The notes beneath the pieces were generated by a model. That model was not told the origin of the DNA, did no database searches, and was given only the letters and a program-made list of their open reading frames with translations. This document shows, one piece after another, positions 3,101-27,222 of a stretch of 27,222 nucleotides of DNA. Where the stretch lies: contig JAXGNR010000017.1 in assembly GCA_040767965.1 (NCBI GenBank), forward strand, positions 1 to 27,222, in the 5' to 3' direction. The translations under genes were made by a program, and so were the position numbers. Source of the stretch: Atribacterota bacterium (lineage in GTDB: Bacteria; Atribacterota; Phoenicimicrobiia; Phoenicimicrobiales; Stramentimicrobiaceae). Every line of letters starts with the position of its first letter. The first letter of the stretch is position 1.

Positions 3101-6100
3101 TTCAACTCAATCCGGAGCAACAATTTACCTGGCAGAAGGGGATTGGACCCAGCAACCCGATTCAGAAGAGATCGTTTGGATTGAAAAAGGAATGACTCCC
3201 ACAACTGATATTTATGGAACACCTGTACCTTTGGTTCTGGAAAATATTGTTGCTGGTACTTATACCATAAAATGTGTCTCAGAATATTATCAGGAAATCA
3301 TCCAGAAAATTGAGGTTGATTCAAATATGATTGCAGCAGTGCATTTTGAGCTGATTCCTGCACTTGCTTATGTAAAAATCATTGCTCAGGATGAACTGGG
3401 GATTCCTGTTTCAGGTGCATATACCAGTTTTTCTCCATGTTTTGGAACGGGATGCAGTCAGGGACCTACAAACGATGATGGAATTTCAAAAGGTTCTCTG
3501 AATGCCGGTTCTTATAATGTTACAGTTTGGAGACAAAATTATCAGACTTTCACCAGGGAAATTCATTTAACCGATTCCTATCCTTCCGAAAATCCTCTGA
3601 CTATACAGGTCACCTTAATCGGTAATCCAGGGACTATTCAGGTAACTTCCAATCCACCGGGAGCAATCATCTATCTGGCTGCAGGAGAGCAAAATGATGA
3701 TAGTGACAGTTCGGTTTGGGAAGAGCTGGGATTGACTCCACAATCAATTACCGGATTAAGTCAGGGAGATTATACTCTTAAAACTTTTCTGGAAGGATAT
3801 ACTCCTGTTGAGTTATCAGATGATATAATGATTCCTTCTGAGGGATATGCAGATTTCAATACTTTTTCCCTAAATCCAGGGGAAACGAAAAATGTCAATA
3901 TTCAGTTTAAACAGATGACTGGAAATCTGCTCGTTTCCTCCAATGAAAGCAATCCAGAAGTCTTTTTAAATAATCAGTCATTAGGATTTCTCCTGACTGA
4001 AAATGGTATCAATAGCAGACTTTTTGAGGATATCCCCATTGGTACTTATCATTTAACTGTCAGCAAGGAGAACTATCTGCCTTACCAGGAAAATGTGGAA
4101 ATCCTTTATCAGGATACAACCAATACACAGGCAAATTTATATTTATCCCAATTTTTAACCGCTTATATCACCATGACTCCCTCTTTTGGTCAACCGCCTT
4201 TAGAGGTTAATTTTACCGGGGAGGGGTCAGGGCCGGCAGGAACAAATATTGAGAGTTATCATTGGGATTTTGGTGATGGGAATTCTTCTTCTGAACAAAA
4301 CCCGACTCATATTTTTCAGGAAGCAGGTCAGTATAATATAACCCTAACTGTAACTGATCAGCAAGGTGATATGGCATCGAAAGACCTTTATGTTAATGTA
4401 ATAAGCGGGGATCAACTGATAGTGAATCCTGCTTCAGGATGTCTGACTATAAGTGCTGACGGTGCAATGGTGGAAACCGGTTCAATGACCTATTCGGGCA
4501 ATGTACTTTTGAATGGCTTTCTTGAAATAACGGATTCAGTCACTGTTCAGGATGGAGAGAATGGAGAAATTTTCGGGAATGGAGACCTATCCACTGGTAT
4601 TGATTTCATAGATTCAGCTATGGCTGGGATAAATACAGAAAAAAGCTTCACCATTGAGCCAAAAGAATATGATATAGGTGGCTGTTATCGGGAAATCTCT
4701 TTTATGGATAGTGTTTCCAATTTTAGTTTTACTTACTATGGCTTAAACTTTGAGGCTGCTGATCCCAAGTTATATACAGATAGGCTTTCTTTTAATGGAA
4801 CCGTATCATTTTTCAGCACCTTATTACCCACGGTTGGACTAGGATTAAGCGTAGATCAATCCGGGTTTGATTTTGGCACGAGAATTGAATTACCAGAGTT
4901 GAGCATCCAGGGATTTGGCATTGAAGATGCTTATCTTGAGCTTGATTTAGGCTGCGGAAATTGCTGGGGAGCAGGCATAACTTTTGGTTTGCCACCATCG
5001 GTAGGAATAAAGGTAGGTGGGACTCTGGGAATACTAAATGGGAATGTCAATAAAGTATCAGCTAAGGCTGCCAGTTTAGGTCTTCCCATTGGTAATACCG
5101 GTGTATTCTTAGGAAGTATTGATGGGGGTCTTGAGCACATTCCTCCTGATCCGGAACCTTTAGTCTTAAAGGCTGGAGCAGGATTTTATGCTGGACCGAA
5201 AATAACCATCCCACCCATAAATTTATTAGATGGAGCTTTAGAGGTATCAGGAGGAGAACTTCATCTTTTGGGAGGGGATGTGGATTTAATCTTTGACTGC
5301 AGCGGAAAGATGACGGCTGAGGGGATAGCTTATATTTTAGATAAAAATTTCGGTGAAATCGGCAGTGCAGAATTATTAGTCGATCTAAACAGGGGTTTTT
5401 ATGCTAAAGGGGAGTTGAGATATCCACCAGGGAGCTTTGCCCTATTAAAAGGTACACTAGCCAGTAAATTGGATTTTGACCTGGAGTTTCAGGCAAGCAT
5501 TGCGGGAATATTACAAGTTCCGGAAGCATTACCAATTATCGGTGGAATGCATTTTGGTGAGGCTGCCGGATACATTGATAATGACTTAATTGCTGCAGGT
5601 GTTTCCATAGGCGATGAAGTTTGCCTGCCGGTAGTGGGATGTTATGATTTTACCTTTCCGGTTTGTTTGATATTTTCCTTTGATGATCCTGGATTTGAGG
5701 TTGTTACCAATTGGGATGCTATTCAGGAGGTCAGTTTAACCCAATTACCATTACCCTATATTAGCCAGATGCCTTTACAATTTGCCGGGGTAGGTTTACC
5801 ATTGTTTTCCCTGGCGCAAGCAGGCAGGAATCCGACTATTGAAAAAGTGTTTGAAGTGCCGGAAGGATTAGAAGTAGCCATATTTCATATGAATATATCT
5901 CCTGGAGGTATTTTACCGGAATTTAGAGTGACCTCACCAAATGATCTGGTCTATGAACAAGAAAGAGATTCTGCCATCTGGCATGGGAATGAAACGACTG
6001 GTGATCTCTGGTGTGCTGTTTCAAATCCTTTACCTGGAAGATGGGTGGTTGCTTCTGATATGCTTTTATCTGATTTAGAATATAAGATTACCCTTTATAA

Positions 6101-8342: not shown

Positions 8343-8384
8343 TGTCATTGCGAGCAGGCTTTGTAGCCTGCGTGGCAATCTCAT
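8343..8384 (+). repeat. Palindromic repeat family B, copy 1 (TGTCATTGCGA-hairpin-GTGGCAATCTCAT)
   Basis: Inner stem GCAGGCT/AGCCTGC; nearly identical to the copy at 24999. Confidence 0.9.
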
Positions 8385-13842: not shown

Positions 13843-14610
13843 TTATCTTCCCATTAAATCATTTCTTCCTCCATTAGAGGCAATTATTTCACCGGTAATC
13901 CAGGATGATTCATCTGAAGCTAAGAATAAAGCTAAATTGGCAATATCCTCAGGTACCCCAATACGTCCCAGTACTGCATTTTCAACTCCGCCACGAACAA
14001 ATTCTTCTACCTGTTCAGGGGTTCTTTCGCTGTATACTATATTGGTTAATATTCTGCCAGGGCAAATTGCATTAACATTGATGTTGTAAGGTCCAAACTC
14101 AAAGGCGCTGGCTTTGGTAAAACCGTTAACTGCAAATTTTGAAGTTACATAAGCTGCACCGGAAACGAATTGTCCCAGGGCTGCAGTTGAAGAGATATTA
14201 ACAATTTTTCCGTACTTTTTTTCCATCATATGCTTGGCAACTGCCTGTGTGCAAAATAGAACGCCCTTTACATTTGTATTCATGACAAAATCCCATTTTT
14301 CTTCTGTAAAATCAACAATTGACATTTTTCCGCCAACACCGGCATCATTAACCAGAATGTCTATTTTGCCAAATTCTTTAATAACTTTATCAACCATGCT
14401 TTGCACCTGTTCTTTGACAGTCACATCAGCAGTAACTGGCAGGGCACGTCTTCCTTTTTCTTCGATTTCTTTAGCTGTTTGGGCTAAATTTTCCATCTTT
14501 CGACTGCTGATTGCAACATCAGCACCTTCGCTGGCAAAAAGTAAAGAAATTGATCTTCCGATTCCGGTTCCTCCGCCGGTTACCAGGGCTACTTTATTTT
14601 GTAGTCTCAT
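13843..14610 (-). CDS. SDR family NAD(P)-dependent oxidoreductase (FabG-like), copy 1
   Basis: TGGGTGIG, NDAG, NISS, catalytic YVTSK, NAICPG. Confidence 0.95.
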   Translation of the reverse strand: MRLQNKVALVTGGGTGIGRSISLLFASEGADVAISSRKMENLAQTAKEIEEKGRRALPVTADVTVKEQVQSMVDKVIKEFGKIDILVNDAGVGGKMSIVDFTEEKWDFVMNTNVKGVLFCTQAVAKHMMEKKYGKIVNISSTAALGQFVSGAAYVTSKFAVNGFTKASAFEFGPYNINVNAICPGRILTNIVYSERTPEQVEEFVRGGVENAVLGRIGVPEDIANLALFLASDESSWITGEIIASNGGRNDLMGR

Positions 14611-16732: not shown

Positions 16733-17503
16733 CTATCTTCCCATTAAATTGGTTCTTCCTCCATTAGAGGCAATTATTTCACCGGTAATCCAGGATGAAT
16801 CATCAGATGCCAGGAATAAAGCTAAATGAGCAATATCTTCAGGTTCCCCAATACGGCCTAAAACAGAAGATTCTATTCCTACCCGGACAAATTCGTCCAC
16901 TTGTTCCTGAGTTCTTTCTTTGTAAACTATATTAGTCAGTATCCTGCCAGGGCAAATTGCATTAACATTAATTCCATAAGGTCCAAACTCAAAGGCGCTG
17001 GCTTTGGTAAAACCATTAACCGCAAACTTGGAAGTTCCATAGGCAGAACTGCCAACTGCAAATTGTCCCAGGGCTGCAGTAGAAGAAATATTAATAATTT
17101 TCCCGTATTTTCTTTCCATCATATGTCTGGCAACTGCCTGGGTGCAGAACATAACACCTTTTACATTTGTATTCATTACAATATCCCAGTTTTCTTCTGT
17201 AAAATCAACAATGGGCATACTTCTGCCAACACCGGAATTATTCACCAGAATATCTATCTGGCCAAACTCTTCAATAACCTTATCAACCATTCTTCGTACT
17301 TGTTCCTTGACAGTTACATCTGCTGCTATCGGCAAAGCACGTCTCCCTTTTTCCTCTATTTCTTTAGCTACTTTAGTTAGATTTTCCATTTTTCGGCTGC
17401 TGATTGCTACATTTGCACCAGCGCTTGCAAATTCTAAAGAAATAGCCCTTCCAATCCCGGTCCCGCCACCGGTCACTAAAGCTACTTTATTCTGTAATTT
17501 CAT
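16733..17503 (-). CDS. SDR family NAD(P)-dependent oxidoreductase, copy 2
   Basis: TGGGTGIG, NNSG, YGTSK; closely similar to copy 1 along its whole length. Confidence 0.95.
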   Translation of the reverse strand: MKLQNKVALVTGGGTGIGRAISLEFASAGANVAISSRKMENLTKVAKEIEEKGRRALPIAADVTVKEQVRRMVDKVIEEFGQIDILVNNSGVGRSMPIVDFTEENWDIVMNTNVKGVMFCTQAVARHMMERKYGKIINISSTAALGQFAVGSSAYGTSKFAVNGFTKASAFEFGPYGINVNAICPGRILTNIVYKERTQEQVDEFVRVGIESSVLGRIGEPEDIAHLALFLASDDSSWITGEIIASNGGRTNLMGR

Positions 17504-17871: not shown

Positions 17872-19479
17872 TTGAATAATAACTTTGATCTCTTAATATT
17901 AAATAGTTCAATTATCGATGGTTCCGGAAATCCATTAGTGCATGCTGATATAGGCATAAAAGATGGGAATATTAATAAGATTGCTAAATTAACAGCTGCC
18001 ACTGCAAAAGAGATTATTGATGCAAAAGGCTTAACCGCATCACCGGGATTTATTGATATTCATAACCATATTGACCATGCCATTCTGGCTTTTCCTAATG
18101 CCGATTCTTATATAATGCAGGGAGTTACCACATCTCTGGTAGGTAATTGTGGATTGTCTATGGCACCCCTTAATCCGCATAACCTGCAGTTGCTAAAAAA
18201 ATATCTCACCCCTTTTTTACGTACTGATTTTAATTATCAGTGGGATTGGAATAGCACCCGGGAATATAGTGAAAAAATTAGCAAAAAGGGTACAGCTGTA
18301 AATTTGGCTTTTTTAGTTGGGCAAGGCACTCTTAGAATAGCAGTAAAAGGATTTGAGATGACCCCTGCTACCATAGAAGAAATGAAAAATATGCAAAATA
18401 TTCTCAGGAAAGAGCTTGAAGAAGGAGCATTTGGATTATCCACAGGCTTGGTTTATCCTCCGGGAAGCTATACCAGCACCGAAGAACTGATTGAGTTAAC
18501 TACAGTATTAAAAGATTATAATGCACTTTATACTACCCACCTTCGAAATCAAAGCGAACAGCTTATTCAGTCCACCGAGGAAGCTATTAAAATAGGAGAA
18601 GCAAACAATATTTCAGTGGAAATCTCACATCATAAAGCTATTGGGAAAGACAACTGGGGTAAAGTAAATAGATCCATGCAGATAATTGCAGATGCTCGCC
18701 AAAGAGGAATAAATGTCAACTTTGATGTTTACCCTTACACTGCCGCCATGACTACAGTCAGCTCCCTTTTACCCGGCTGGGTCCTGGAAGGTGGCATCGA
18801 AAACATGCTGCAGCGTTTAGAAGACAAAGCTGTCAGAAAAGAAATAACTATAGATATAGCAGAAGGGAGAATGAAAGGGGAAAACAGAATAAAAAGTATT
18901 GGCTGGAAAAATATTGTAGTAGCTGAATGTCCTTTAGATAGAAGTTCTGAAGGTAAGTCTTTACATGATCTTTTTAAAGAATTCCCTGAACCGTTCAATC
19001 CTTTGTTTGATTGGCTGCTCCATATTAAAGGAGAAGCCACCATGCTCTTTTTCTGCATGGACGAAGAAGATGTCAGAGCAGTTATTAGAAATCCCCTTTC
19101 AATGATAATTTCTGATGCCTGGGTAACTGCCCCCAGTGGTGGCGGAAAACCGCACCCTCGAGGATACGGCTCATTTCCCAGGGTAATAAGTAAGTATGTA
19201 AGAGAGGAAAAACTGTTAACTTTACCAGAAGCAATTAGAAAGATGACTTCTCTACCTGCCCAAAAAATAGGCTTACAGGATAGGGGATTGATAAAAGAGG
19301 GTTATTGTGCTGACCTGGTTTTGTTCGATACTGAAAAAATTAAAGATATGGCCACCTTTGAAAACCCGCATCAGTATCCGCAAGGGATTGATAGGGTAAT
19401 AGTAAACGGACAATCTGTAGTAAAAAATGGACAAATAACCGGTGTAAAGCCTGGCAAAATCCTGAGAAGAAAAAAATAA
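17872..19479 (+). CDS. N-acyl-D-amino-acid deacylase (D-aminoacylase, amidohydrolase family)
   Basis: PGFIDIHNH, GVTTSLVGNCG, STGLVYPPG, SHHK, DVYPYTA, PHPRGYGSFPR, DRGLIKEGYCADLVLFD; TTG start. Confidence 0.93.
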   Translation: MNNNFDLLILNSSIIDGSGNPLVHADIGIKDGNINKIAKLTAATAKEIIDAKGLTASPGFIDIHNHIDHAILAFPNADSYIMQGVTTSLVGNCGLSMAPLNPHNLQLLKKYLTPFLRTDFNYQWDWNSTREYSEKISKKGTAVNLAFLVGQGTLRIAVKGFEMTPATIEEMKNMQNILRKELEEGAFGLSTGLVYPPGSYTSTEELIELTTVLKDYNALYTTHLRNQSEQLIQSTEEAIKIGEANNISVEISHHKAIGKDNWGKVNRSMQIIADARQRGINVNFDVYPYTAAMTTVSSLLPGWVLEGGIENMLQRLEDKAVRKEITIDIAEGRMKGENRIKSIGWKNIVVAECPLDRSSEGKSLHDLFKEFPEPFNPLFDWLLHIKGEATMLFFCMDEEDVRAVIRNPLSMIISDAWVTAPSGGGKPHPRGYGSFPRVISKYVREEKLLTLPEAIRKMTSLPAQKIGLQDRGLIKEGYCADLVLFDTEKIKDMATFENPHQYPQGIDRVIVNGQSVVKNGQITGVKPGKILRRKK

Positions 19480-19587
19480 TTAAATATTTTTAAAAAGTTG
19501 AGGTGGCATTATTAAAAAAATATTGCTTATCATACTATCATTAATAATAGTAACAGCTTTAATTCTAAGAAGGATATATGATTGCTG

Positions 19588-19630
19588 ATTACTAAGGCCT
19601 GGTTTTATTGCCAGACCTTAGCAATTTTTT
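19588..19630 (+). terminator. Terminator-like hairpin between convergent genes
   Basis: ATTACTAAGGCCTGG-N8-CCAGACCTTAGCAAT followed by a T tract. Confidence 0.6.
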
Positions 19631-19660
19631 ATTAAAATCTTTGGCATTTTTTCATTAATT

Positions 19661-20110
19661 TTATTTTACAACTAGCACGCTGCAGCCTTCTGCCTCCTGT
19701 ACTACTGCATTACTGACACTCCCAAGTAAAAACTTTTTCAAGCCTCCTATACCTCTGCTGCCAATAACAATCATATCAAATCCTTCTTCTTTTGCTACTT
19801 TAACAATTACAGAAGAAGGGTGCCCTTCTTTTAAGATTGTTCTTGCTTTTATATTATTTTTTTCTAGAAAACCTGAGGCTTTAGTTAAAAGTTTTTCTCT
19901 TTCTCTTTTCTGACCTTCCAGCATATTTTGGTAGTTTTGCATTTGTTCCGCGGTAATGCTTTCATAATGGGGAAAAGTTGTATCAAGGGCCGGATCGTGA
20001 ACATGAATTACAGCTGCCTCCACAACATTACAACCTTGAGCAATTACTTTTGCTTCTTCCAGAGCTTTCTGGCTGGATTCTGAACCATCTGTACAAATTA
20101 ATATTTTCAT
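19661..20110 (-). CDS. Universal stress protein (UspA family)
   Basis: KILICTDGSESS; DMIVIGSRG..GLKKFLLGSVS; SVLVVK; RBS present. Confidence 0.95.
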   Translation of the reverse strand: MKILICTDGSESSQKALEEAKVIAQGCNVVEAAVIHVHDPALDTTFPHYESITAEQMQNYQNMLEGQKREREKLLTKASGFLEKNNIKARTILKEGHPSSVIVKVAKEEGFDMIVIGSRGIGGLKKFLLGSVSNAVVQEAEGCSVLVVK

Positions 20111-20528
20111 AATATTCCTCCTTTTACTAATTATTAACTAATAATTTTATCATAGAAATATAAAATGTAAAAACTATCCAAATTATTTCAATTAGAGCTT
20201 GTGTAATTAAAGAGAAAAAAATTAAAGAAAGTAATTTAGTATGTATGACTGTAAATTGAATAAAAGAAGGGGTATTTGATGTGTATTAAAACTAATATAG
20301 TCTTTTCTAATCTGTAAGGTAGCTCTGCCTTAAACAATAAGCATTTTGGCAGTGGAAAAAGTATCTACAAAAATTTAACACAGATATATTATCTGAGTAT
20401 TTTTAGGCAAATCTACATCTTTTTTATGTCAGCGGGCAAGTTTTAAGTATCTTTAGTACCACAGTAAATTTTACACTAACAAAATATTAACTAAATCTTT
20501 GTATTGTTAAAGTAACATGATGAAATTT

Positions 20529-20560
20529 TGTCATTGCTCCAAGCGGCGAAGCAATCCCAT
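20529..20560 (+). repeat. Family B repeat, degenerate copy
   Basis: TGTCATTGC...GAAGCAATCCCAT. Confidence 0.75.
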
Positions 20561-20845
20561 CCATTAATTTTTCACCAGATATTAACAATCAACAACTAAT
20601 TTTATTCTGCAGCTTTTTTATGTCCGGCAAAATATTATCTTATATTTAATCACTTGAGATTACATGCCCTTATTATATACATACTAGAATGTCTAAAACA
20701 TATTAAAATAGGGAATAATAAAATTAGTACCATTTATTAAAAAAATTCTAATTAACCGGAAATGTTTGGTTATTCTAAAACACAATACTATATCCCCGAT
20801 ATGGGATTTATACTATACTATATACAATTTTCAAAAGGAGTGCCT

Positions 20846-21397
20846 ATGGAATGGTATCTTGAAGTCATAAAAAAATATGCAGTTTTTAATGGCAGGGCCA
20901 GAAGAAAAGAATACTGGATGTTTTTCCTGATAAACTTTATTATAGGAACCTTATTAGGCATAATGGATAAATCTATCAGTAATATTGGATTACTGGGGGC
21001 AATTTACAGCCTTGCCGTATTCATTCCCAGCATGGCAGTTACAGTCAGAAGGCTTCATGACACTAATAGAAGCGGATGGTGGATGTTAATTGCTCTGGTT
21101 CCTTTAATCGGTTGGATTTTTTTCTTTATCTTTACAATTCAGGATAGCACTCCCGGGAGAAACCAGTATGGTACAAATCCAAAGGAAGAAGATATCGAAT
21201 ATTCTAATCAAACACCATCAGATTTAAAAAAATGTCCACAATGTGCAGAATTAGTCAAAAGAGAAGCGCGAATCTGTCGTTTTTGCGGGCATGAATTTTA
21301 TCAGAAGCCAAAGACAGTTGAAGAAGAGATCAATGAATTTGAGAAAAAGCAAAAAAAATCGAGTACTGATGACTTTGAAGATGATGAGATAATCTAA
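20846..21397 (+). CDS. DUF805 (YhaH-like) membrane protein with C-terminal zinc ribbon
   Basis: KKYAVFNGRARRKEYW, VRRLHDTNRSGWW, CPQC..CRFC; AAGGAG RBS at 20835 supports start 20846. Confidence 0.92.
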   Translation: MEWYLEVIKKYAVFNGRARRKEYWMFFLINFIIGTLLGIMDKSISNIGLLGAIYSLAVFIPSMAVTVRRLHDTNRSGWWMLIALVPLIGWIFFFIFTIQDSTPGRNQYGTNPKEEDIEYSNQTPSDLKKCPQCAELVKREARICRFCGHEFYQKPKTVEEEINEFEKKQKKSSTDDFEDDEII

Positions 21398-21473
21398 ACA
21401 ACCTCCCGAGCAGGGTTTAATTATTACCATTTACTTAATCGAAAGGTAAGAATTTACCTATTTAACTTCTTCT

Positions 21474-21504
21474 TATCATTGCGAACATAGTGAAGCAATC
21501 TCAT
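21474..21504 (+). repeat. Family B repeat, short-hairpin copy
   Basis: TATCATTGCGA-ACATAGT-GAAGCAATCTCAT. Confidence 0.85.
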
Positions 21505-21846
21505 CCATTTACATCAGAACGGTTTTACATTTATATTGTATTAAACTAGAGACGGACTAATAGCTACCAGATACTAACTTTATCTTGCAATTTGTAATGA
21601 GAAACTCGCATCTTTATTTTGACCGGCAGACTGGTAATTTTCACTCAACGAATATTGTTTCTGTCATTGTGAATCCCGTTATCATTTCCTCTCCCTTGAA
21701 CCAGAGATTGCTTCTTACATTTCCTCAACCAAAAAGTGAGAATTTCCCTGCATAGTCTCTTCCCGCTCGAGAGGAACACTATACTTTTTCTATCTTCTAT
21801 CCCTTGAGGCGAGAATTAACTCTTATTCAGTCTCCTCCCCCCTTTA

Positions 21847-21908
21847 ATGAAAGGATTTCCCCAACCCAGTCTCCTCCCCCTTGAGGGGGGAGGACTAAGG
21901 TGGGGGTG
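21847..21908 (+). repeat. Family C repeat copy 1 (TCTCCTCCCCCTTGAGGGGGGAGGACTAAGGTGGGGGTG core at 21870-21908)
   Basis: 62 bp identical to 22905-22966. Confidence 0.95.
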
Positions 21909-21937
21909 AATATTATACGTTATACATTATATGATTC

Positions 21938-21977
21938 TGTCATTGCAAGCCAATTTTAATTGGCGTGGCAATCTCAT
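21938..21977 (+). repeat. Family B repeat
   Basis: Inner stem GCCAATT/AATTGGC. Confidence 0.9.
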
Positions 21978-22007
21978 ACAAATATACCCGGAAAGAATAG
22001 TATTTCT

Positions 22008-22063
22008 CTGCAATTTTCCATCCTTCCATTATTGCATCCTTCCATTTTTCCAATCTTGCAAAC
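22008..22063 (+). repeat. Degenerate 8-bp tandem array TT(C/G)CAnnn x7
   Basis: ctgcaatt ttccatcc ttccatta ttgcatcc ttccattt ttccaatc ttgcaaac. Confidence 0.85.
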
Positions 22064-22133
22064 TGTAACCTATGTCCTGGTTAAATAATTAGTCTAAAAA
22101 CCAAAGACCTTAAACTGATAACTGTTTTTTCCC

Positions 22134-22190
22134 TTGTAAAATAATAAAATATTATTATAATATATTAATATAATAATAAATTATTAATAT
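22134..22190 (+). promoter_or_regulatory. Promoter and putative operator of TA pair 1
   Basis: TTGTAA-N16-TATAAT (22134-22161); ATATTAATA/TATTAATAT inverted repeat at 22162-22190; region is very AT-rich, so chance matches are possible. Confidence 0.45.
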
Positions 22191-22207
22191 CAATACAGGT
22201 GATAAAG

Positions 22208-22483
22208 ATGGACAAAATGACCAAAATTAGAGACAACTCTCAAATAACCATTCCCAAAAATATAATGGATAAATTGGATTTAAAAAAGGGAGATACTATC
22301 TCTATTGAACTTCGGGATGACGAAATAATATTAAAACCAGTTGTCATTATTGATAAAAGCCAAACCTGGTTCTGGAGCAAAGATTGGCAAAAAGAAGAGA
22401 GGGAAGCGGAAGAAGATATAAGAAAAGGCAGAGTAAAAACTTTTAATAATACCGACGATTTAATGAAAGATTTAAAAAAGTAA
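22208..22483 (+). CDS. AbrB/MazE/SpoVT family antitoxin
   Basis: QITIPKNIMDKLDLKKGD swapped-hairpin motif; QTWFWSKDWQ..E.EAEEDI..GRV tail; AGGTGA RBS. Confidence 0.92.
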   Translation: MDKMTKIRDNSQITIPKNIMDKLDLKKGDTISIELRDDEIILKPVVIIDKSQTWFWSKDWQKEEREAEEDIRKGRVKTFNNTDDLMKDLKK

Positions 22484-22756
22484 ATGAAGATCCAAATAAC
22501 CCAACGGTTTAAAAGAAGTTTTCAGAAATTAATAAAAGAAGAACAACAAACATTTCAAAAACAGATAGATCTTTTTTTACAAAATCCAACAGTACCATTC
22601 CACCCTTCTTTACAGATAAAAAAAATCCAGGGAACTGCAGAAATATTCGAATGCAGGATCAATCGGGATATTCGCATGACCTGGCAATATCACCTTTCAG
22701 GATATATCTTACTTCGCAATATTAGTAAGCATGACCGAACACTGAAAAGACCATAA
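22484..22756 (+). CDS. RelE/ParE superfamily toxin (putative mRNA interferase)
   Basis: T.RFKRSFQKL, HPSLQIKKIQG, IFECRINRDIRMTW, HD; starts immediately after the antitoxin stop. Confidence 0.85.
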   Translation: MKIQITQRFKRSFQKLIKEEQQTFQKQIDLFLQNPTVPFHPSLQIKKIQGTAEIFECRINRDIRMTWQYHLSGYILLRNISKHDRTLKRP

Positions 22757-22904
22757 AATAAAAAACAGTATGTAGTGTTTAGTATCGCGTATCGAGTCCA
22801 AATTTGGCAAGCTATATTTTCAGTTAGCAGAAAATCTCACTCTTATCATTGTTACTAGCTATTTCTTCTGCCATTGTAAATCCCGGATCATTCCCCCCTC
22901 CTTG

Positions 22905-22966
22905 ATGAAAGGATTTCCCCAACCCAGTCTCCTCCCCCTTGAGGGGGGAGGACTAAGGTGGGGGTG
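22905..22966 (+). repeat. Family C repeat copy 2
   Basis: 62 bp identical to 21847-21908. Confidence 0.95.
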
Positions 22967-23029
22967 GAACAATCTTTATTTTTTACTAAACACTAACGAC
23001 CAGCGGCTAATTCTATCTTTCATATTTTT

Positions 23030-23065
23030 TTGACAAATACCTTTAAGTATGATAATAATATCATA
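23030..23065 (+). promoter_or_regulatory. Promoter and operator palindrome of TA pair 2
   Basis: TTGACA at 23030; TATGATA-ataa-TATCATA at 23048-23065 overlapping the -10 region. Confidence 0.65.
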
Positions 23066-23081
23066 TAAAGAGGTGATACAA

Positions 23082-23303
23082 ATGCCAAGACATACTATAT
23101 ATTTATCAGAATCTGATAGTAAATTACTCCAGGAATTAAAAGAAAAACATGGCTCAGTTTCTAATGTAATTAGAATATCTCTCAACAAATTAAGAGAAGA
23201 CAAATTAAAAGAATATTATACAAATAAATCTGAATCCTATTCTGAGCTACGCAAAGCCCAACAAAAAGTTATCAAAAGACAGGAAAAAGAGGAGCAATTA
23301 TGA
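23082..23303 (+). CDS. Putative ribbon-helix-helix antitoxin
   Basis: RHTIYLS strand followed by two helices (SVSNVIRISL); GAGGTG RBS; ATGA overlap with the toxin. Confidence 0.75.
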   Translation: MPRHTIYLSESDSKLLQELKEKHGSVSNVIRISLNKLREDKLKEYYTNKSESYSELRKAQQKVIKRQEKEEQL

Positions 23304-23617
23304 TTTTCCCAAAAAGAGGAGAGGTATACTGGGGACCCGGTAAAAAGAAGATCAGACCACTTTTGGTTGTTTCAAATAATTTGGGGAACCAGTACAGCAG
23401 TGATGTTGTAGTCATCCCTGGTACTACTCAAAATACAGATACTGTCTATCCAATAGAAGTCCTGGTAAAAGATGGATTTTCTAATCCTACAAAATTTCAG
23501 GCAGATTCAATCTTTACTATTGAAAAAACAGACCTAGGTGAAAAAATTACTTCTCTTTCCCCTGATATTATGAAAGAAATAAACCGGGCACTTCAGATTG
23601 AACTTAATTTAGAATAA
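23300..23617 (+). CDS. mazF: PemK/MazF family endoribonuclease toxin
   Basis: PKRGEVYW, KIRPLLVVSNN, VVVIPGTT, IFTIEKTDLGEKITSL. Confidence 0.9.
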   Translation: MIFPKRGEVYWGPGKKKIRPLLVVSNNLGNQYSSDVVVIPGTTQNTDTVYPIEVLVKDGFSNPTKFQADSIFTIEKTDLGEKITSLSPDIMKEINRALQIELNLE

Positions 23618-24022
23618 TAAACAAAGTCATTGGTTTTTGGTTTATCGTTTTTATTTAGAATATTTTTGATTTGATACTTTTTGCTCATTATCACTGATTA
23701 TTATCTTAATCGGTAACCAGTAAACATTATTTTCCTACATCATGCATTTACTGACAGATTTTTCTTGTATACAAACGTTTTATGTAATATGCTATACGGT
23801 TTACTGTTTCTTTTTTATTGAGGTGAGAATTTCCCAGCCCAGTTTCCTCCAACTTGAGCCTCAAAGCTATAATAAATTCCATAGCTAGCGCCGGAGATAA
23901 TTCCAGAGTCATTTTCTTTTCTATTAATCACTACCTCCCTTGGGTTATGATAGATGTTTGAGGGAAGGATTTCCCTGCTTAATTTCCTCCTTCTTGAGGG
24001 CAGAATTAACTCTTCTTTTATA

Positions 24023-24059
24023 TCCTCCCCCTTGAGGGGAGAGGACTAAGGTGGGGGTG
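24023..24059 (+). repeat. Family C repeat copy 3
   Basis: TCCTCCCCCTTGAGGGGAGAGGACTAAGGTGGGGGTG; degenerate partial copies upstream at ~23822-23858 and ~23965-24000. Confidence 0.93.
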
Positions 24060-24163
24060 AAAACTATTGCATTGGGGAACGAATTGCCAAAGCCTGTGAT
24101 TCTGATTTAATAATTGATTTTGTTCCTAAAAAGAAGTAGCTAATTACTTAAATAAAAGCAAAA

Positions 24164-24192
24164 TTGAAAATATGAATCCCTTAATTTATAAT
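24164..24192 (+). promoter_or_regulatory. Promoter of hicAB
   Basis: TTGAAA-N17-TATAAT. Confidence 0.6.
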
Positions 24193-24254
24193 ATAATAAG
24201 AAATAGGAAAAAATATTAAAAAGTTTTTAATAATTAAATAACAAGGAGCAAGTT

Positions 24255-24440
24255 TTGAAATTCAGCGAATTAGTTAGAATCTTAGAAAGAAACGGTTACT
24301 CTATTGTCAAAGAAAAAGGTTCAATTCGCTATTATAGCAAACCCGGAATAAAGAAGTTAATTAGAATTGATTACCATGGCTCGAAAGAAGTGCCAACAGG
24401 TACCTGTAAGTTTATTTTAAAAAGTGCAGGTTTAAAATAA
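24255..24440 (+). CDS. hicA: HicA family toxin
   Basis: ELVRILERNGY, KGS, YHGSKEVPTGT..ILKSAGL; TTG start with AAGGAG RBS. Confidence 0.87.
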   Translation: MKFSELVRILERNGYSIVKEKGSIRYYSKPGIKKLIRIDYHGSKEVPTGTCKFILKSAGLK

Positions 24441-24455
24441 AGGAGAACTTATAAA

Positions 24456-24704
24456 ATGATTAATTTAAAATATTCGCTGGTAATAGAAGCAACAGAAGAT
24501 CCCATCTTCTTTACTTTTTATTCTCCTGATATTGAAGGGTTCACTGGAGTTGGACATTCTGTAGAAGATTGTATTTATCAGGCAAGATGGGGAATGGAAG
24601 AACATCTGGATTTATTAAAAGAAAGAAAATTGCCGATTCCTAAAGAAAACAAAAACCCGGAAATTATAATCAGAAATGAGAATAAATCAAATGTAGCAGT
24701 GTAA
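24456..24704 (+). CDS. hicB: HicB family antitoxin, short form
   Basis: YSLVIE, YSPDIEG..GVGHSVEDC, LPIP; AAGGAG RBS. Confidence 0.88.
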   Translation: MINLKYSLVIEATEDPIFFTFYSPDIEGFTGVGHSVEDCIYQARWGMEEHLDLLKERKLPIPKENKNPEIIIRNENKSNVAV

Positions 24705-24872
24705 TAAGGGAAAATAATATTTTTCAATTATATTAGTTTTACCAAGTAACTTTTTATTACTATATCTATTAAATTTGAATTGTTTTATAGTAATATGTTA
24801 TACGCAATACGATATACTTCTTTGTCATCGTGTGTATTTCTCCCTTTTTGGTCAGCACGAACTTCCTTCTTA

Positions 24873-24913
24873 TCTCCTCCCCCTTGAGGGGTGGGAGGAC
24901 TAAGGTGGGGGTG
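24873..24913 (+). repeat. Family C repeat copy 4
   Basis: Core with a one-base T insertion in the G run. Confidence 0.93.
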
Positions 24914-24998
24914 TAATTAGATGAACATTATACATTATGTCTTTTTTAGTTGTCGCAGGGTATCCTTTTCCCGTCATCGAGAGTGATTATTCCTCTTC

Positions 24999-25039
24999 TG
25001 TCATTGCAGCAGGCTTTATAGCCTGCGAAGCAATCTCAT
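24999..25039 (+). repeat. Family B repeat
   Basis: Inner stem GCAGGCT/AGCCTGC. Confidence 0.9.
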
Positions 25040-25238
25040 CCAAATATACCCAAAAGTTTTGTATTTATATTTTATCAACTAGTTACCAGCTACCGCATTT
25101 CAAACTAATGAACGAATTAACCAATTAATTAATGAACTAATATACTTATAATGATCAATCTAGCAAACTACCAGGAAATCAAGATAAATTTCTGGTAAAA
25201 TAAAAATGATTACTTAATAATAATAAGGAAGATATACA

Positions 25239-26221
25239 ATGTCTAAAATAAATGAAATTATTATTTATACTACAGAAGATGGTAAAGAAACATTTGAAGT
25301 AAACCTGAAAGAGGAGACTGTCTGGCTATCCCAAAGGCAGATGGCGGAGTTGTTTGAGAAAGATGTGCGAACAATTAATGAACATATAAAGAATATATTT
25401 TCCGAAGGTGAATTAGAAGAAAATGCAGTTATCCGGAAATTCCGGATAACTGCAGCGGACGGGAAAAAATACAATACCAATATGTACAATCTTGATTTGA
25501 TCATCTCGGTTGGCTATCGGGTAAACTCCAAACGAGGTACCCAATTCCGCATCTGGGCAACAAATGTTTTAAAAAACCATCTTATTCAGGGATACTCGAT
25601 CAATCAAAAAAGATTACAGGAAAATCAGACTAAACTAAAGGAATTGCAGAAAACAACCAGAATGATAGAAAGACTCCTTTTACAGAAAAACCTGGAATCC
25701 GTCAGAAGCAACTGGCTTACTGCAAGTTATTTTGGAATACCAGAAAGCCCTGCACTTACTTGATGAATATGATCATCAGGAGCTTCAGATAAAAGAGATT
25801 ACAACCCAGGAGAAATTTAAATTAACCTACGAAGGCCCGAAAAGAATTAAGTAATTTGAAGGGTTACTACAGCTCAGGTTTATTCGGTCTGGAAAAAGAC
25901 CAGTCTTTCTCCGGTTCTATCGGTGCTATATATCAAAGTTTTGATGGCAAAGAAGTTTATCCCAGCATAGAAGAAAAAGCAGCCCATTTGCTCTACTTTG
26001 TAGTAAAAAATCATTCCTTTGTGGATGGAAACAAACGCATTGCAGCATCACTTTTTATCTGGTTCTTAAATGAAAATGGCATTCTTTACAAAGAAGATGG
26101 CAGCAAAAGAATTGCTGACAATACACTGGTAGCATTAACATTACTTATCGCTGAAAGCAAACCGGAAGAAAAAGACATTATGATAAAAGTTATTGTTAAT
26201 CTCATCAACCGGGAGAATTAA
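25239..26221 (+). pseudogene. RhuM-like/Fic-Doc fusion protein interrupted by two frameshifts (~25704, ~25834)
   Basis: ETVWLSQRQMAELF and YNLDLIISVGYRVNSKRGTQFRIWA (RhuM); middle frame EATGLLQVILEYQKALHLLDEYDHQ; HSFVDGNKRIA Fic motif. Confidence 0.88.
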
Positions 26222-26303
26222 ATTGAGATCAAAGGTTTTTAGCTTTTAGTTAATAGTTTTTCGTTTTGAGATGTAATATTTCCGACTTTATTTTTTGCTA
26301 TTT

Positions 26304-26347
26304 CTTATCACCTACCACTTATTACTTAACACTTATCACCCATAACT
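26304..26347 (+). repeat. Degenerate 7-bp tandem array
   Basis: cttatca cctacca cttatta cttaaca cttatca cccataa. Confidence 0.8.
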
Positions 26348-26409
26348 ACATTCAACCATTATATCTTGTAATCTTCTCTTGTCATTGCGTATATTTCTCT
26401 CTCTTTTTT

Positions 26410-26452
26410 TGTCATTGCGAAATTTGCTAAAAGCAAATTGAAGCAATCTCAT
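26410..26452 (+). repeat. Family B repeat, preceded by a half copy at 26380
   Basis: Inner stem AATTTGCT/AGCAAATT. Confidence 0.9.
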
Positions 26453-26561
26453 GCATTTATACTTGAATTCTTAGTATTAGCCTAAAAACTGACAACTGAA
26501 AACTTTTGTAATTAACTGGCAAACCGGTAAATTGGTATTTTAAATTAAAGAATATTGACTC

Positions 26562-26606
26562 TGTCTTTGCGAGAAATGATTTTTAATCATTTCGTGGCAA
26601 TCTCAT
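26562..26606 (+). repeat. Family B repeat
   Basis: Inner stem GAAATGATT/AATCATTTC. Confidence 0.9.
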
Positions 26607-27134
26607 CAAATTTTACTTGCAGCATTGACTGTTGCTGTTTTTTACCAACAGGGTGGATTTTTGTATTTCGACTCGATACAACATACTCGATACACGATAC
26701 GATTTCAAAAAGCTTGAAAGGAATGCCTTTTATGCAACACTGGAAAACTGGAAGGATGCAAAAATGGTAAATAAATAAAATATAACATAGAAATCCAGGT
26801 CTTTTAAAAAGTCATTATTCCAATATTGCAGCTTTCCATCATTGCTAAATATACCCCTAGGATTATTTTTACTGAAAAACGAAAACCGATAACTGAAAAC
26901 TTTCCCCAACCTCTGGAACTCTGTTCCCTAAAGTGTTAAAATAATAAAATAGTATAAAAATAAATAAACAAATAGCAGCATTCAGCCAGCACCAAAAACC
27001 CAACAAAATTCACAGCAAGAAACGCAGAAATTTTTACCCTCTCTTTTTTTGCCTGTAATAGGAAAGAAAGAATTAATAAGAGTTAATCCTATGTCTTATG
27101 AGAATATAACTAAGGGAAGTAATAACAAATACTA

Positions 27135-27222
27135 ATGAAAAATTTTATTACAAACAGCTCTTATGTAAGGCTCAAAAAACGGATCATTGATTTAATTGAA
27201 AAATCTGATGAACTCAAATTTT
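27135..27222 (+). CDS. Partial CDS, probable N-terminus of a PLD-nuclease/SNF2-type helicase
   Basis: Open to the window end: MKNFITNSSYVRLKKRIIDLIEKSDELKF; resembles the FITN...LI..S.ELKFLVG N-terminus I recall for such helicases; only 29 aa visible. Confidence 0.45.
   Translation, partial: MKNFITNSSYVRLKKRIIDLIEKSDELKF

Follow-up and report, generated by a model that had tools for sequence, protein, structure and literature searches.

The stretch of DNA studied here (hereafter the window) comprises 27,222 nucleotides (nt) and is the entire contig C17 (JAXGNR010000017.1) of an Atribacterota genome, GCA_040767965.1, designated G000 (2.33 Mb, 30 contigs, 98% complete, 32-36% G+C). The subject of the analysis is the part from 20.5 kb to the contig end, where small genes, most of them of the toxin-antitoxin (TA) type, alternate with short structure-forming repeats of two families, B and C. 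As seen in Table 1, all genes in this part lie on the plus strand, and the five small tandem modules that had been predicted from the letters were recovered when open reading frames (ORFs) and Pfam matches were read. Since the window is the whole of contig C17, the array runs into the contig end. The original prediction held that this layout of repeat, module and repeat might be an undescribed, integron-like system for capturing cassettes. According to the evidence presented below, the locus is probably an ordinary accessory island of autonomous TA operons, the spacers of which have been colonised by dispersed triplex-type and hairpin repeats, with no cassette machinery.

Table 1. Features of the island and its borders, in window coordinates
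Feature	Coordinates	Strand	Basis and remarks
Universal stress protein gene	19661-20110	-	PF00582 E 6e-30; final ordinary gene on the left side of the island
Family B copy 1, weak inner stem	20530-20568	+	Sequence; profile match 20546-20568; -5.6 kcal/mol, z -0.35
DUF805 membrane protein with C-terminal zinc ribbon	20762-21397	+	PF05656 E 4e-34, PF10571 E 1e-8
Family B copy 2, degenerate inner stem	21474-21516	+	Sequence, profile search, fold
Family C cluster 1: full copy 21861-21908 behind degenerate units of about 37 nt	21736-21908	+	Profile E 1.4e-14; three-block motif
Family B copy 3, two-tier hairpin and 3' tail	21939-21993	+	Profile search; -13.2 kcal/mol, z -1.96
AbrB-RelE promoter-like site	22134-22161	+	TTGTAA/TATAAT, 10/12; left limit of cross-genome homology
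AbrB/MazE-type antitoxin (22199-22483) and RelE/YafQ-like toxin (22484-22756)	22199-22756	+	PF04014 E 5e-11
Family C copy 2 with one upstream unit	22895-22966	+	Profile search; three-block motif
RHH-MazF promoter-like site	23030-23059	+	TTGACA/AATAAT, 11/12; left limit of cross-genome homology
RHH-MazF pair: 84-aa antitoxin-position gene and PemK/MazF	23049-23303 and 23300-23617	+	Toxin PF02452 E 6e-19
Family C cluster 3: degenerate units, then full copy 24012-24059	23823-24059	+	Profile search; three-block motif
XRE-type antitoxin gene, 3' remnant	24060-24140	+	Comparison with the whole gene in G017:C9
HicAB promoter-like site	24164-24192	+	TTGAAA/TATAAT, 11/12
HicAB pair: HicA (24255-24440) and HicB-like (24456-24704)	24255-24704	+	HicA PF07927 E 5e-14
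Family C copy 4	24866-24913	+	Profile E 2e-13
Family B copy 4 and, 5' of it, two degenerate half-units	24952-25056	+	-18.2 kcal/mol, z -3.84
RhuM-Fic/Doc gene in three reading-frame pieces (pseudogene)	25239-26221	+	PF13310 E 6e-25, PF02661 E 8e-11, in separate ORFs
Family B copies 5 and 6 with 5' half-unit	26383-26620	+	Sequence, profile search, fold
Non-coding tail with short tandem repeats of 7-8 nt	26621-27222	.	Extends to the contig end

Each of the three pairs AbrB-RelE, RHH-MazF and HicAB consists of two small adjacent or overlapping genes with a promoter-like site, which gives them, at the level of sequence, the makeup of putative type II TA systems. The matches of the RelE/YafQ-like toxin (PF15738 E 0.0018, TIGR02385 E 5e-4) and of the HicB-like antitoxin (PF15919 E 0.005) are weak and fall below the cut-offs, and no Pfam match was obtained for the 84-aa partner of MazF. 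The RhuM-Fic gene is broken, with the RhuM N-terminal part at 25239-25763 and the Fic/Doc part at 25856-26221; in the relative G020 it is a single ORF of 327 aa with 79% DNA identity. A further module has almost disappeared. Between MazF and HicA only a remnant of an XRE-type antitoxin gene is left, its 5' part and the toxin-position gene being gone; in G017:C9 the gene is whole and has its partner. A 50-nt piece of this remnant is present in four other loci. The DUF805 gene has a 73%-identical copy that adjoins HicAB in G007:C10.

A promoter of its own had been claimed for each TA pair, and a predicted sigma-70-like site with 10-11 of 12 matching positions was found for each. Because such sites number 50 in this region against 31.8 in shuffled sequences, a lone promoter-like site is weak evidence. 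The upstream DNA (200-330 nt) was also aligned across genomes, with eight copies of AbrB-RelE from seven genomes and RHH-MazF from six. In all eight of the former and all six of the latter, cross-genome homology starts within a few bases of the -35 hexamer, and upstream of the hexamer the aligned sequences split into unrelated groups. It follows that the conserved unit is the promoter, the operator and the two genes, and not the DNA from repeat to repeat; this would be the unit expected of autonomous TA operons. The aligned upstream stretch is free of C in 5 of 8 copies of AbrB-RelE and in 2 of 6 of RHH-MazF. The expectation that module breakpoints would coincide with the repeats thus failed, since the boundaries of both modules lie at the -35 hexamer.

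The companion expectation, that module order would vary among relatives, was borne out: the same modules occur in other orders in G015, G007 and G013. G017, by contrast, retains the order of AbrB-RelE, C, RHH-MazF and HicAB, with an identity of 92-94%. DNA identity between the modules and their copies in other genera is 75-94%, compared with 71% at most for the adjacent amidohydrolase gene, and this difference points to horizontal exchange of the modules. Individual gains and losses can also be located. In G017, the C copy positioned as window copy 2 carries an insert of approximately 200 nt in its first loop, no C lies within 200 nt upstream of AbrB, and a whole two-gene XRE module stands where G000 has a C cluster and the gene remnant. 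The insert (G017:C9, L033 approximately 4330-4545, minus strand) sits exactly between the C-rich arm and the first loop, and has no match in window region 19400-27222. In G008, where C lies approximately 10 nt from the AbrB module, the stretch 21932-22124, which includes B copy 3, finds no match.

Family C had been described as preceding each of the four TA and Fic modules at intervals of about 0.85-1.1 kb, and the measurements agree with this description. The full copies start at 21861, 22919, 24012 and 24866, all on the plus strand, with spacings of 1058, 1093 and 854 nt. A profile search of the 2.33-Mb genome (E 5e-4 or better) returned 11 copies, so that four copies in 3.1 kb (Poisson P approximately 2e-9 per window of that size, for about 750 windows) are far beyond chance. 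The motif, approximately 39 nt in length, reads CCTCCCCC, TTGA, GGGGGGAGG, AYTAA, GGTGGGGG, in which a C-rich (pyrimidine) arm, a 4-nt loop and a G-rich (purine) arm are followed, after a second loop of 5 nt, by a mirror image of the G-rich arm with T in place of A. This mirror relation of the two purine blocks is kept in families that differ in sequence. When a generic three-block design with stems of at least 8 was searched for, G000 gave 13 matches and each of three shuffled genomes 0. Of the 13, twelve are located in TA or defence islands; the matches include window copies 1-3, copy 4 being missed on account of its bulged arm. The C hairpins reach -15 to -23 kcal/mol (z -0.8 to +0.2 relative to shuffles of the same composition), and the purine arm and tail hold GGAGG-like and AAGGTGG-like words.

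Each full C copy is preceded by one to four degenerate units of approximately 37 nt, which are 64-78% alike. These units were not reported by Tandem Repeats Finder, which gave only short repeats with periods of 6-21 nt. Families B and C are alike in this respect, as one to four degenerate 5' half-units stand before a single complete copy in both. A type III (ToxI-like) RNA antitoxin was considered for the 37-nt units and rejected, given their limited likeness and the promoter-bearing type II pairs that follow them; ToxN was not searched. A second co-oriented array was observed at G000 C4:680329-682958 (L001 4329-6958), where four C copies on the minus strand are interleaved with ParE-like and HicAB pairs. 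This array adjoins pilin and PilD genes, and a similar arrangement, HicAB-C-pilin-PilD, is present in G010:C268.

In design, family C matches TMECO, an intrastrand-triplex motif of Escherichia coli in which one C-rich and two G-rich arms follow one another, separated by a first loop and by a second loop of 3 nt (Holder 2015, PMC4666352). The literal TMECO pattern as it appears there, CCCTCNCCC-N3-6-GGGNGAGGG-N3-GGGNGAGGG, matches none of the four window copies and was found in four other copies in G000, three on C16 and one on C19. On C16 a family C copy (1503, minus) faces an exact copy of the TMECO pattern (1756, plus) at a distance of approximately 250 nt, beside MazEF, and this recalls the inverted pairs of type A and type B that the paper describes in E. 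coli (PMC4666352). A literature search by the sequences of the C core, of B and of the translated repeat peptides turned up, among the papers listed from the library searched, none that prints these exact sequences, although the supplementary tables of Holder 2015 may list related motifs.

Family B is a two-tier hairpin of 35-45 nt. It starts with GTCATT and has a fixed outer stem (ATTGC/GCAAT), an inner stem of 6-8 bp and a conserved 3' tail; the sequence of the inner stem differs among copies and its pairing is always kept. Seven copies are present in the window, with profile matches starting at 8371, 20546, 21491, 21963, 25025, 26440 and 26593, and approximately 25 in G000, comprising 23 profile matches, some of them weak, and two found by pattern alone. 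Family B bounds the DUF805 and RhuM-Fic modules, as had been noted before, and the space between C1 and the AbrB gene contains a further copy. The single orientation attributed to the full copies of both families also stands, with 7/7 of B and 4/4 of C on the plus strand. Family B occurs throughout the order; beyond the order, B-like hairpins beside C were seen in a few contigs, no systematic search for B having been made there.

A cluster of repeats was also found inside a gene. The ugd gene (UDP-glucose dehydrogenase; G000 C4:390708-392366, locus L002 2708-4369) contains an in-frame block of approximately 105 codons made of B and C-like units. The block (approximately L002 3177-3490) falls in a surface loop, and the reading frame is open in both filled genomes, G000 and G005. 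The number of units in G005 is different, and the site is empty in G003 and G024. These filled and empty sites show insertion, in a loop region too diverged for a target-site duplication to be read. Together with the stretch 21932-22124 unmatched in G008 and the C-loop insert of G017, they suggest that the repeats behave as insertions. With regard to features of miniature inverted-repeat transposable elements, no terminal repeats were seen beyond the hairpin itself.

Outside G000, the 31-nt core of C with two mismatches allowed was found in 34 of the 52 genomes of the order, at 1-19 copies each, and a reversed control pattern gave 0. The flanks were surveyed at one locus per genome (29 loci with 33 C copies), the flanking ORFs being compared with Pfam and TA-type genes counted within 1.5 kb. 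Five loci were of TA type, two held restriction genes, three a prophage lysis cassette, and the remaining 19 housekeeping or other genes. In the sister family, a TA-type gene was present at 2 of 23 loci. Certain spacers recur across genomes, namely purF/purM and LysR/MoCF (three times each), udk/HAD and the position upstream of wzz (twice each), and other copies lie upstream of argG or pilM. A downstream ORF was available for 28 of the 33 copies and was co-oriented with C in 24 and opposed in 4, the called start lying 14-396 nt away. In divergent spacers, six copies face the downstream gene, and convergent spacers contain none. Family C in Atribacterota is therefore generally upstream of, and co-oriented with, the next gene, which accounts for the co-orientation observed in the array. 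In two sampled genomes of non-Atribacterota, 14 co-oriented and 15 opposed cases were counted from crude ORF calls. Three of the four exceptions in Atribacterota are supplied by loci L055, L056 and L057 (G045, G039 and G046), in which C is antisense to a prophage-like lysis cassette and separates its M15 peptidase gene from its holin gene; at L275 (G006), too, C adjoins an M15 peptidase gene.

The exact 31-mer of C occurs in at least 126 stretches (one genome per species) at loci of 0.33-0.69 G+C, with approximately 39 nt conserved. Among the matches listed, the labels cover Atribacterota and at least 10 other phyla, and the contigs are labelled, among others, as Alphaproteobacteria, SAR202, Dadabacteria, Elusimicrobia, Planctomycetes and Omnitrophota. 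There are 40 copies in one 6.3-Mb genome with scaffolds of up to 1.8 Mb, and 19 in a SAR202 genome (G053); these two counts are not open to the doubt about mis-binning that affects short contigs.

In the probable explanation, the locus is an accessory island of autonomous type II TA operons together with a DUF805 gene, a decayed RhuM-Fic gene and an antitoxin-gene remnant, and B and C, both of them short, dispersed and structure-forming, have spread into its long spacers. The anatomy, the distribution of the repeats, the absence of an integron integrase and the module boundaries at the promoters are shown by the data. Beyond these, the repeats would pile up because dispensable, horizontally exchanged DNA tolerates insertions, and such motifs may make neighbouring DNA liable to be deleted, inserted or reshuffled. 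A dedicated machinery for cassettes would have no part in this, and recombination or instability at the repeats, which is possible, would be a property of a known repeat class and not of a cassette system. Several observations weigh against this explanation. Ten of the 15 toxin genes of G000 have a B, C or TMECO-type copy no more than 1 kb away, compared with 2.0% of the genome; the toxin families in this count were picked after some of them had been seen near repeats. Seven of the 11 C copies of G000 immediately precede a TA or Fic module and share its orientation, and in five genomes of the window's family a TA-type gene lies within 700 nt of 13 of 36 C copies (2 of the 13 being assigned by DNA homology and not by Pfam). 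Tolerated junk may be insufficient to explain such enrichment. In addition, C stands upstream of RHH-MazF in four of six genomes despite a different left-hand gene, so that it may travel with this module or mark its edge. The letter-identical 31-39 nt across phyla in a TMECO-type variant would imply active horizontal spread or strong selection, while no enzyme able to move C was found and, to our knowledge, none is known. The material itself also calls for caution, as all genomes compared are metagenome bins, in which the phylum labels of short contigs are possibly wrong, and the ORFs follow a crude longest-ORF rule. Taken together, the enrichment of TA genes near the repeats, which had been put forward as a test, is present in G000 and does not hold as a rule (5 of 29 loci of the order and 2 of 23 in the sister family). 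The association of C with TA genes in this family is a real tendency, strongest in G000. From the proximity to TA genes and the differing module order, it appears that the repeats may mark, or promote, unstable DNA.

A more active part would be given to the repeats if they were hot spots of instability, which stall replication or offer short portable homology and thus assemble and erode TA islands without an integrase. The module order differs among G000, G015, G007 and G013, TA genes are enriched near the repeats, and three structural differences lie at or next to C: the loss of the toxin-position gene and of the 5' part of the XRE gene abuts C3, the insert of G017 is in a C loop, and the stretch with B copy 3, unmatched in G008, is beside C1. 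TMECO loci, too, are linked with rearrangement in E. coli (PMC4666352). However, the homology of two modules breaks at the promoter and not inside a repeat, and C in the sister family is mostly in the same housekeeping spacers across genomes (three times in purF/purM), which indicates stability; association with variable DNA does not show causation. This explanation is considered possible but rather unlikely. The orientation of C could alternatively reflect a regulatory role, if C acted on the downstream gene, within its transcript or promoter region, as an insulator between operons, an RNA-stabilising hairpin or a mimic of a ribosome-binding site and was kept for this role. The ratio of 24 to 4 co-oriented ORFs at 14-396 nt from the called start, the divergent-spacer copies facing their downstream gene with none in a convergent spacer, the GGAGG-like and AAGGTGG-like words and the strong hairpins are all consistent with such a role. 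Nevertheless it is improbable, since C folds no better than its shuffles, the distances to start codons vary widely, the two non-Atribacterota genomes show no orientation bias (by crude ORF calls), no Rfam family was matched, and the TMECO paper found for that motif neither a functional class nor a regulatory pattern (PMC4666352).

The regular layout, the strict co-orientation and the existence at C4:680-683 kb of another co-oriented array, which holds ParE-like and HicAB pairs, would also fit a site-specific cassette system, in which B or C are the sites of an unrecognised recombinase or hairpin nuclease, encoded elsewhere, that captures and excises promoter-bearing TA cassettes. Against such a system stand the absence of an integron integrase and of attC features in the searches described below, the 0 of 23 Y1-transposase loci with C within approximately 1.5 kb in six genomes, the module boundaries at promoters, and the nested and degenerate spacer copies, which a precise site-specific system would not leave. 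Most C copies in relatives, moreover, flank single housekeeping genes, and one cluster is in frame inside ugd. A site-specific cassette system is thus very improbable and already largely refuted. The wider proposal that B and C are tiny elements spreading horizontally across phyla, which preferentially mark and destabilise the borders of autonomous TA and defence modules and allow integrase-free reshuffling through an unrecognised enzyme that moves or cuts them, is judged distinctly unlikely; if it were true, Atribacterota would gain, lose and reshuffle TA and defence modules without an integrase by using B and C. With the ordinary accessory island as the probable explanation, the outcome is deflationary, as an apparent new cassette-capture system becomes a TA island with repeats of a described class.

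Other features of the region were recorded as well. The tRNA scan of the window, made with a possible integration site in view, gave 0 tRNA genes, and no match to Rfam was obtained in 19400-27222 at E up to 1. Parts of 20500-27222 are contained in public sequencing runs (20 rows from 13 studies), landfill and digester samples among them, at a maximum of 0.45 of the sampled words. Tandem arrays with 7-nt units are located at 26299-26340, 26674-26700 and 26871-26901. An intergenic stretch of approximately 210 nt between the universal stress protein and DUF805 genes (20180-20392) recurs at five further places in G000 (C5, C6, C7 twice, and C10) at 89-92% identity and in relatives at 71-86%; it has no Rfam match and may represent either a small RNA gene or a dispersed element. 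Outside the island, 300-nt stretches within 13844-14467 and 16734-17360 are repeated 2.9 kb apart at 84% identity. On the minus strand they cover two ORFs (256 and 257 aa) that have the appearance of a gene duplicated and since diverged.

Comparison with known systems begins with chromosomal integrons, of which the Vibrio superintegron, where attC sites are of the VCR type, is an example. Such integrons typically contain TA cassettes that carry promoters themselves, and an attC site is an imperfect palindrome, 57-141 bp long, that holds RYYYAAC and GTTRRRY core words. The island shares with these integrons the co-oriented small modules, the similar repeats between them, the many promoter-bearing TA pairs and a module content that varies among relatives. 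In contrast, it has no IntI, attI or Pc, its repeats are hairpins of 39-45 nt without R''/R' cores that also flank housekeeping genes and sit inside one, and its spacers are long mosaics of 290-800 nt with several nested repeats. The original prediction was correct that no integrase is in view in the window and that the hairpins are not attC, since direct reading found the RYYYAAC and GTTRRRY core words in neither B nor C. No integron integrase was found in the genome either (98% complete, in 30 contigs, with the array ending at a contig end), where two PF00589 tyrosine recombinases score 125 and 135 bits with the integron-integrase model TIGR02249, the cut-off of which is 265. With the XerD model, one of them reaches 340 bits and so exceeds the cut-off of 329.6; the second stays below the XerC cut-off of 335, at 321, and passes the general tyrosine-recombinase model. 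Given that only Xer-like recombinases are present, a reading as Xer/dif modules was considered and set aside, a dif-like word following two of the four C copies, with no systematic test having been made. With no integron integrase, no attC cores, boundaries at promoters and C as a general repeat, the claim of an undescribed integron-like capture system is not upheld, while the layout of repeat and module, the differing module orders and the clustering with TA genes in G000 are retained.

Repetitive extragenic palindromic (REP) sequences, bacterial interspersed mosaic elements and the REPIN-RAYT system resemble B and C as short GC-rich extragenic hairpins that are dispersed, clustered in mosaics and variable in copy number among relatives, and they share with B the inner stems that vary yet keep pairing. 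They differ from B and C by a GTAG-type 5' tag, as B starts with GTCATT and C has no tag, and the window contains no inverted doublets. Among 23 Y1-transposase loci of G000, G013, G046, G050 and G052, C was present within approximately 1.5 kb of none and a B-like copy near one, and G053, the SAR202 genome with 19 C copies, has no Y1 match. This indicates that C does not behave as the REP of a RAYT. Rickettsia palindromic elements are in-frame repeat insertions in genes, each a single element of 100-150 nt. The ugd insert is similar in that B and C-like units are in frame within the gene and leave the frame unbroken in two genera, but sequence, size and host differ, and the insert is a cluster of several short units.

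The closest likeness is to TMECO. E. coli K-12 is reported to hold 23 intergenic copies of it, nearly identical and lying more frequently upstream of ORFs, at loci rearranged more often between strains than control sites; the paper reports no link to known mobile elements, no functional class, no regulatory pattern and no strand bias (PMC4666352). Its search located TMECO in 262 genomes of proteobacteria, and G/C-rich triplex motifs of other kinds are reported from Cyanobacteria (PMC4666352). TMECO and C share three blocks on one strand, a first loop of 3-6 nt, a second G-rich arm mirroring the first, a length of approximately 37-39 nt, and dispersed, near-identical intergenic copies, more often upstream of ORFs, at loci that vary among relatives. 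Compared with TMECO, the window copies of C have the arm CCTCCCCC instead of CCCTCNCCC and a second loop of 5 nt, the hosts are Atribacterota and contigs labelled as many other phyla, and C shows an orientation bias in Atribacterota and degenerate half-units before each full copy. Judged by its sequence design, family C is a new sequence variant, in new hosts, of the described class of TMECO-type triplex repeats. As a motif enriched beside TA genes in this lineage and present in frame in ugd, it provides a natural system for testing motif-caused genome instability.

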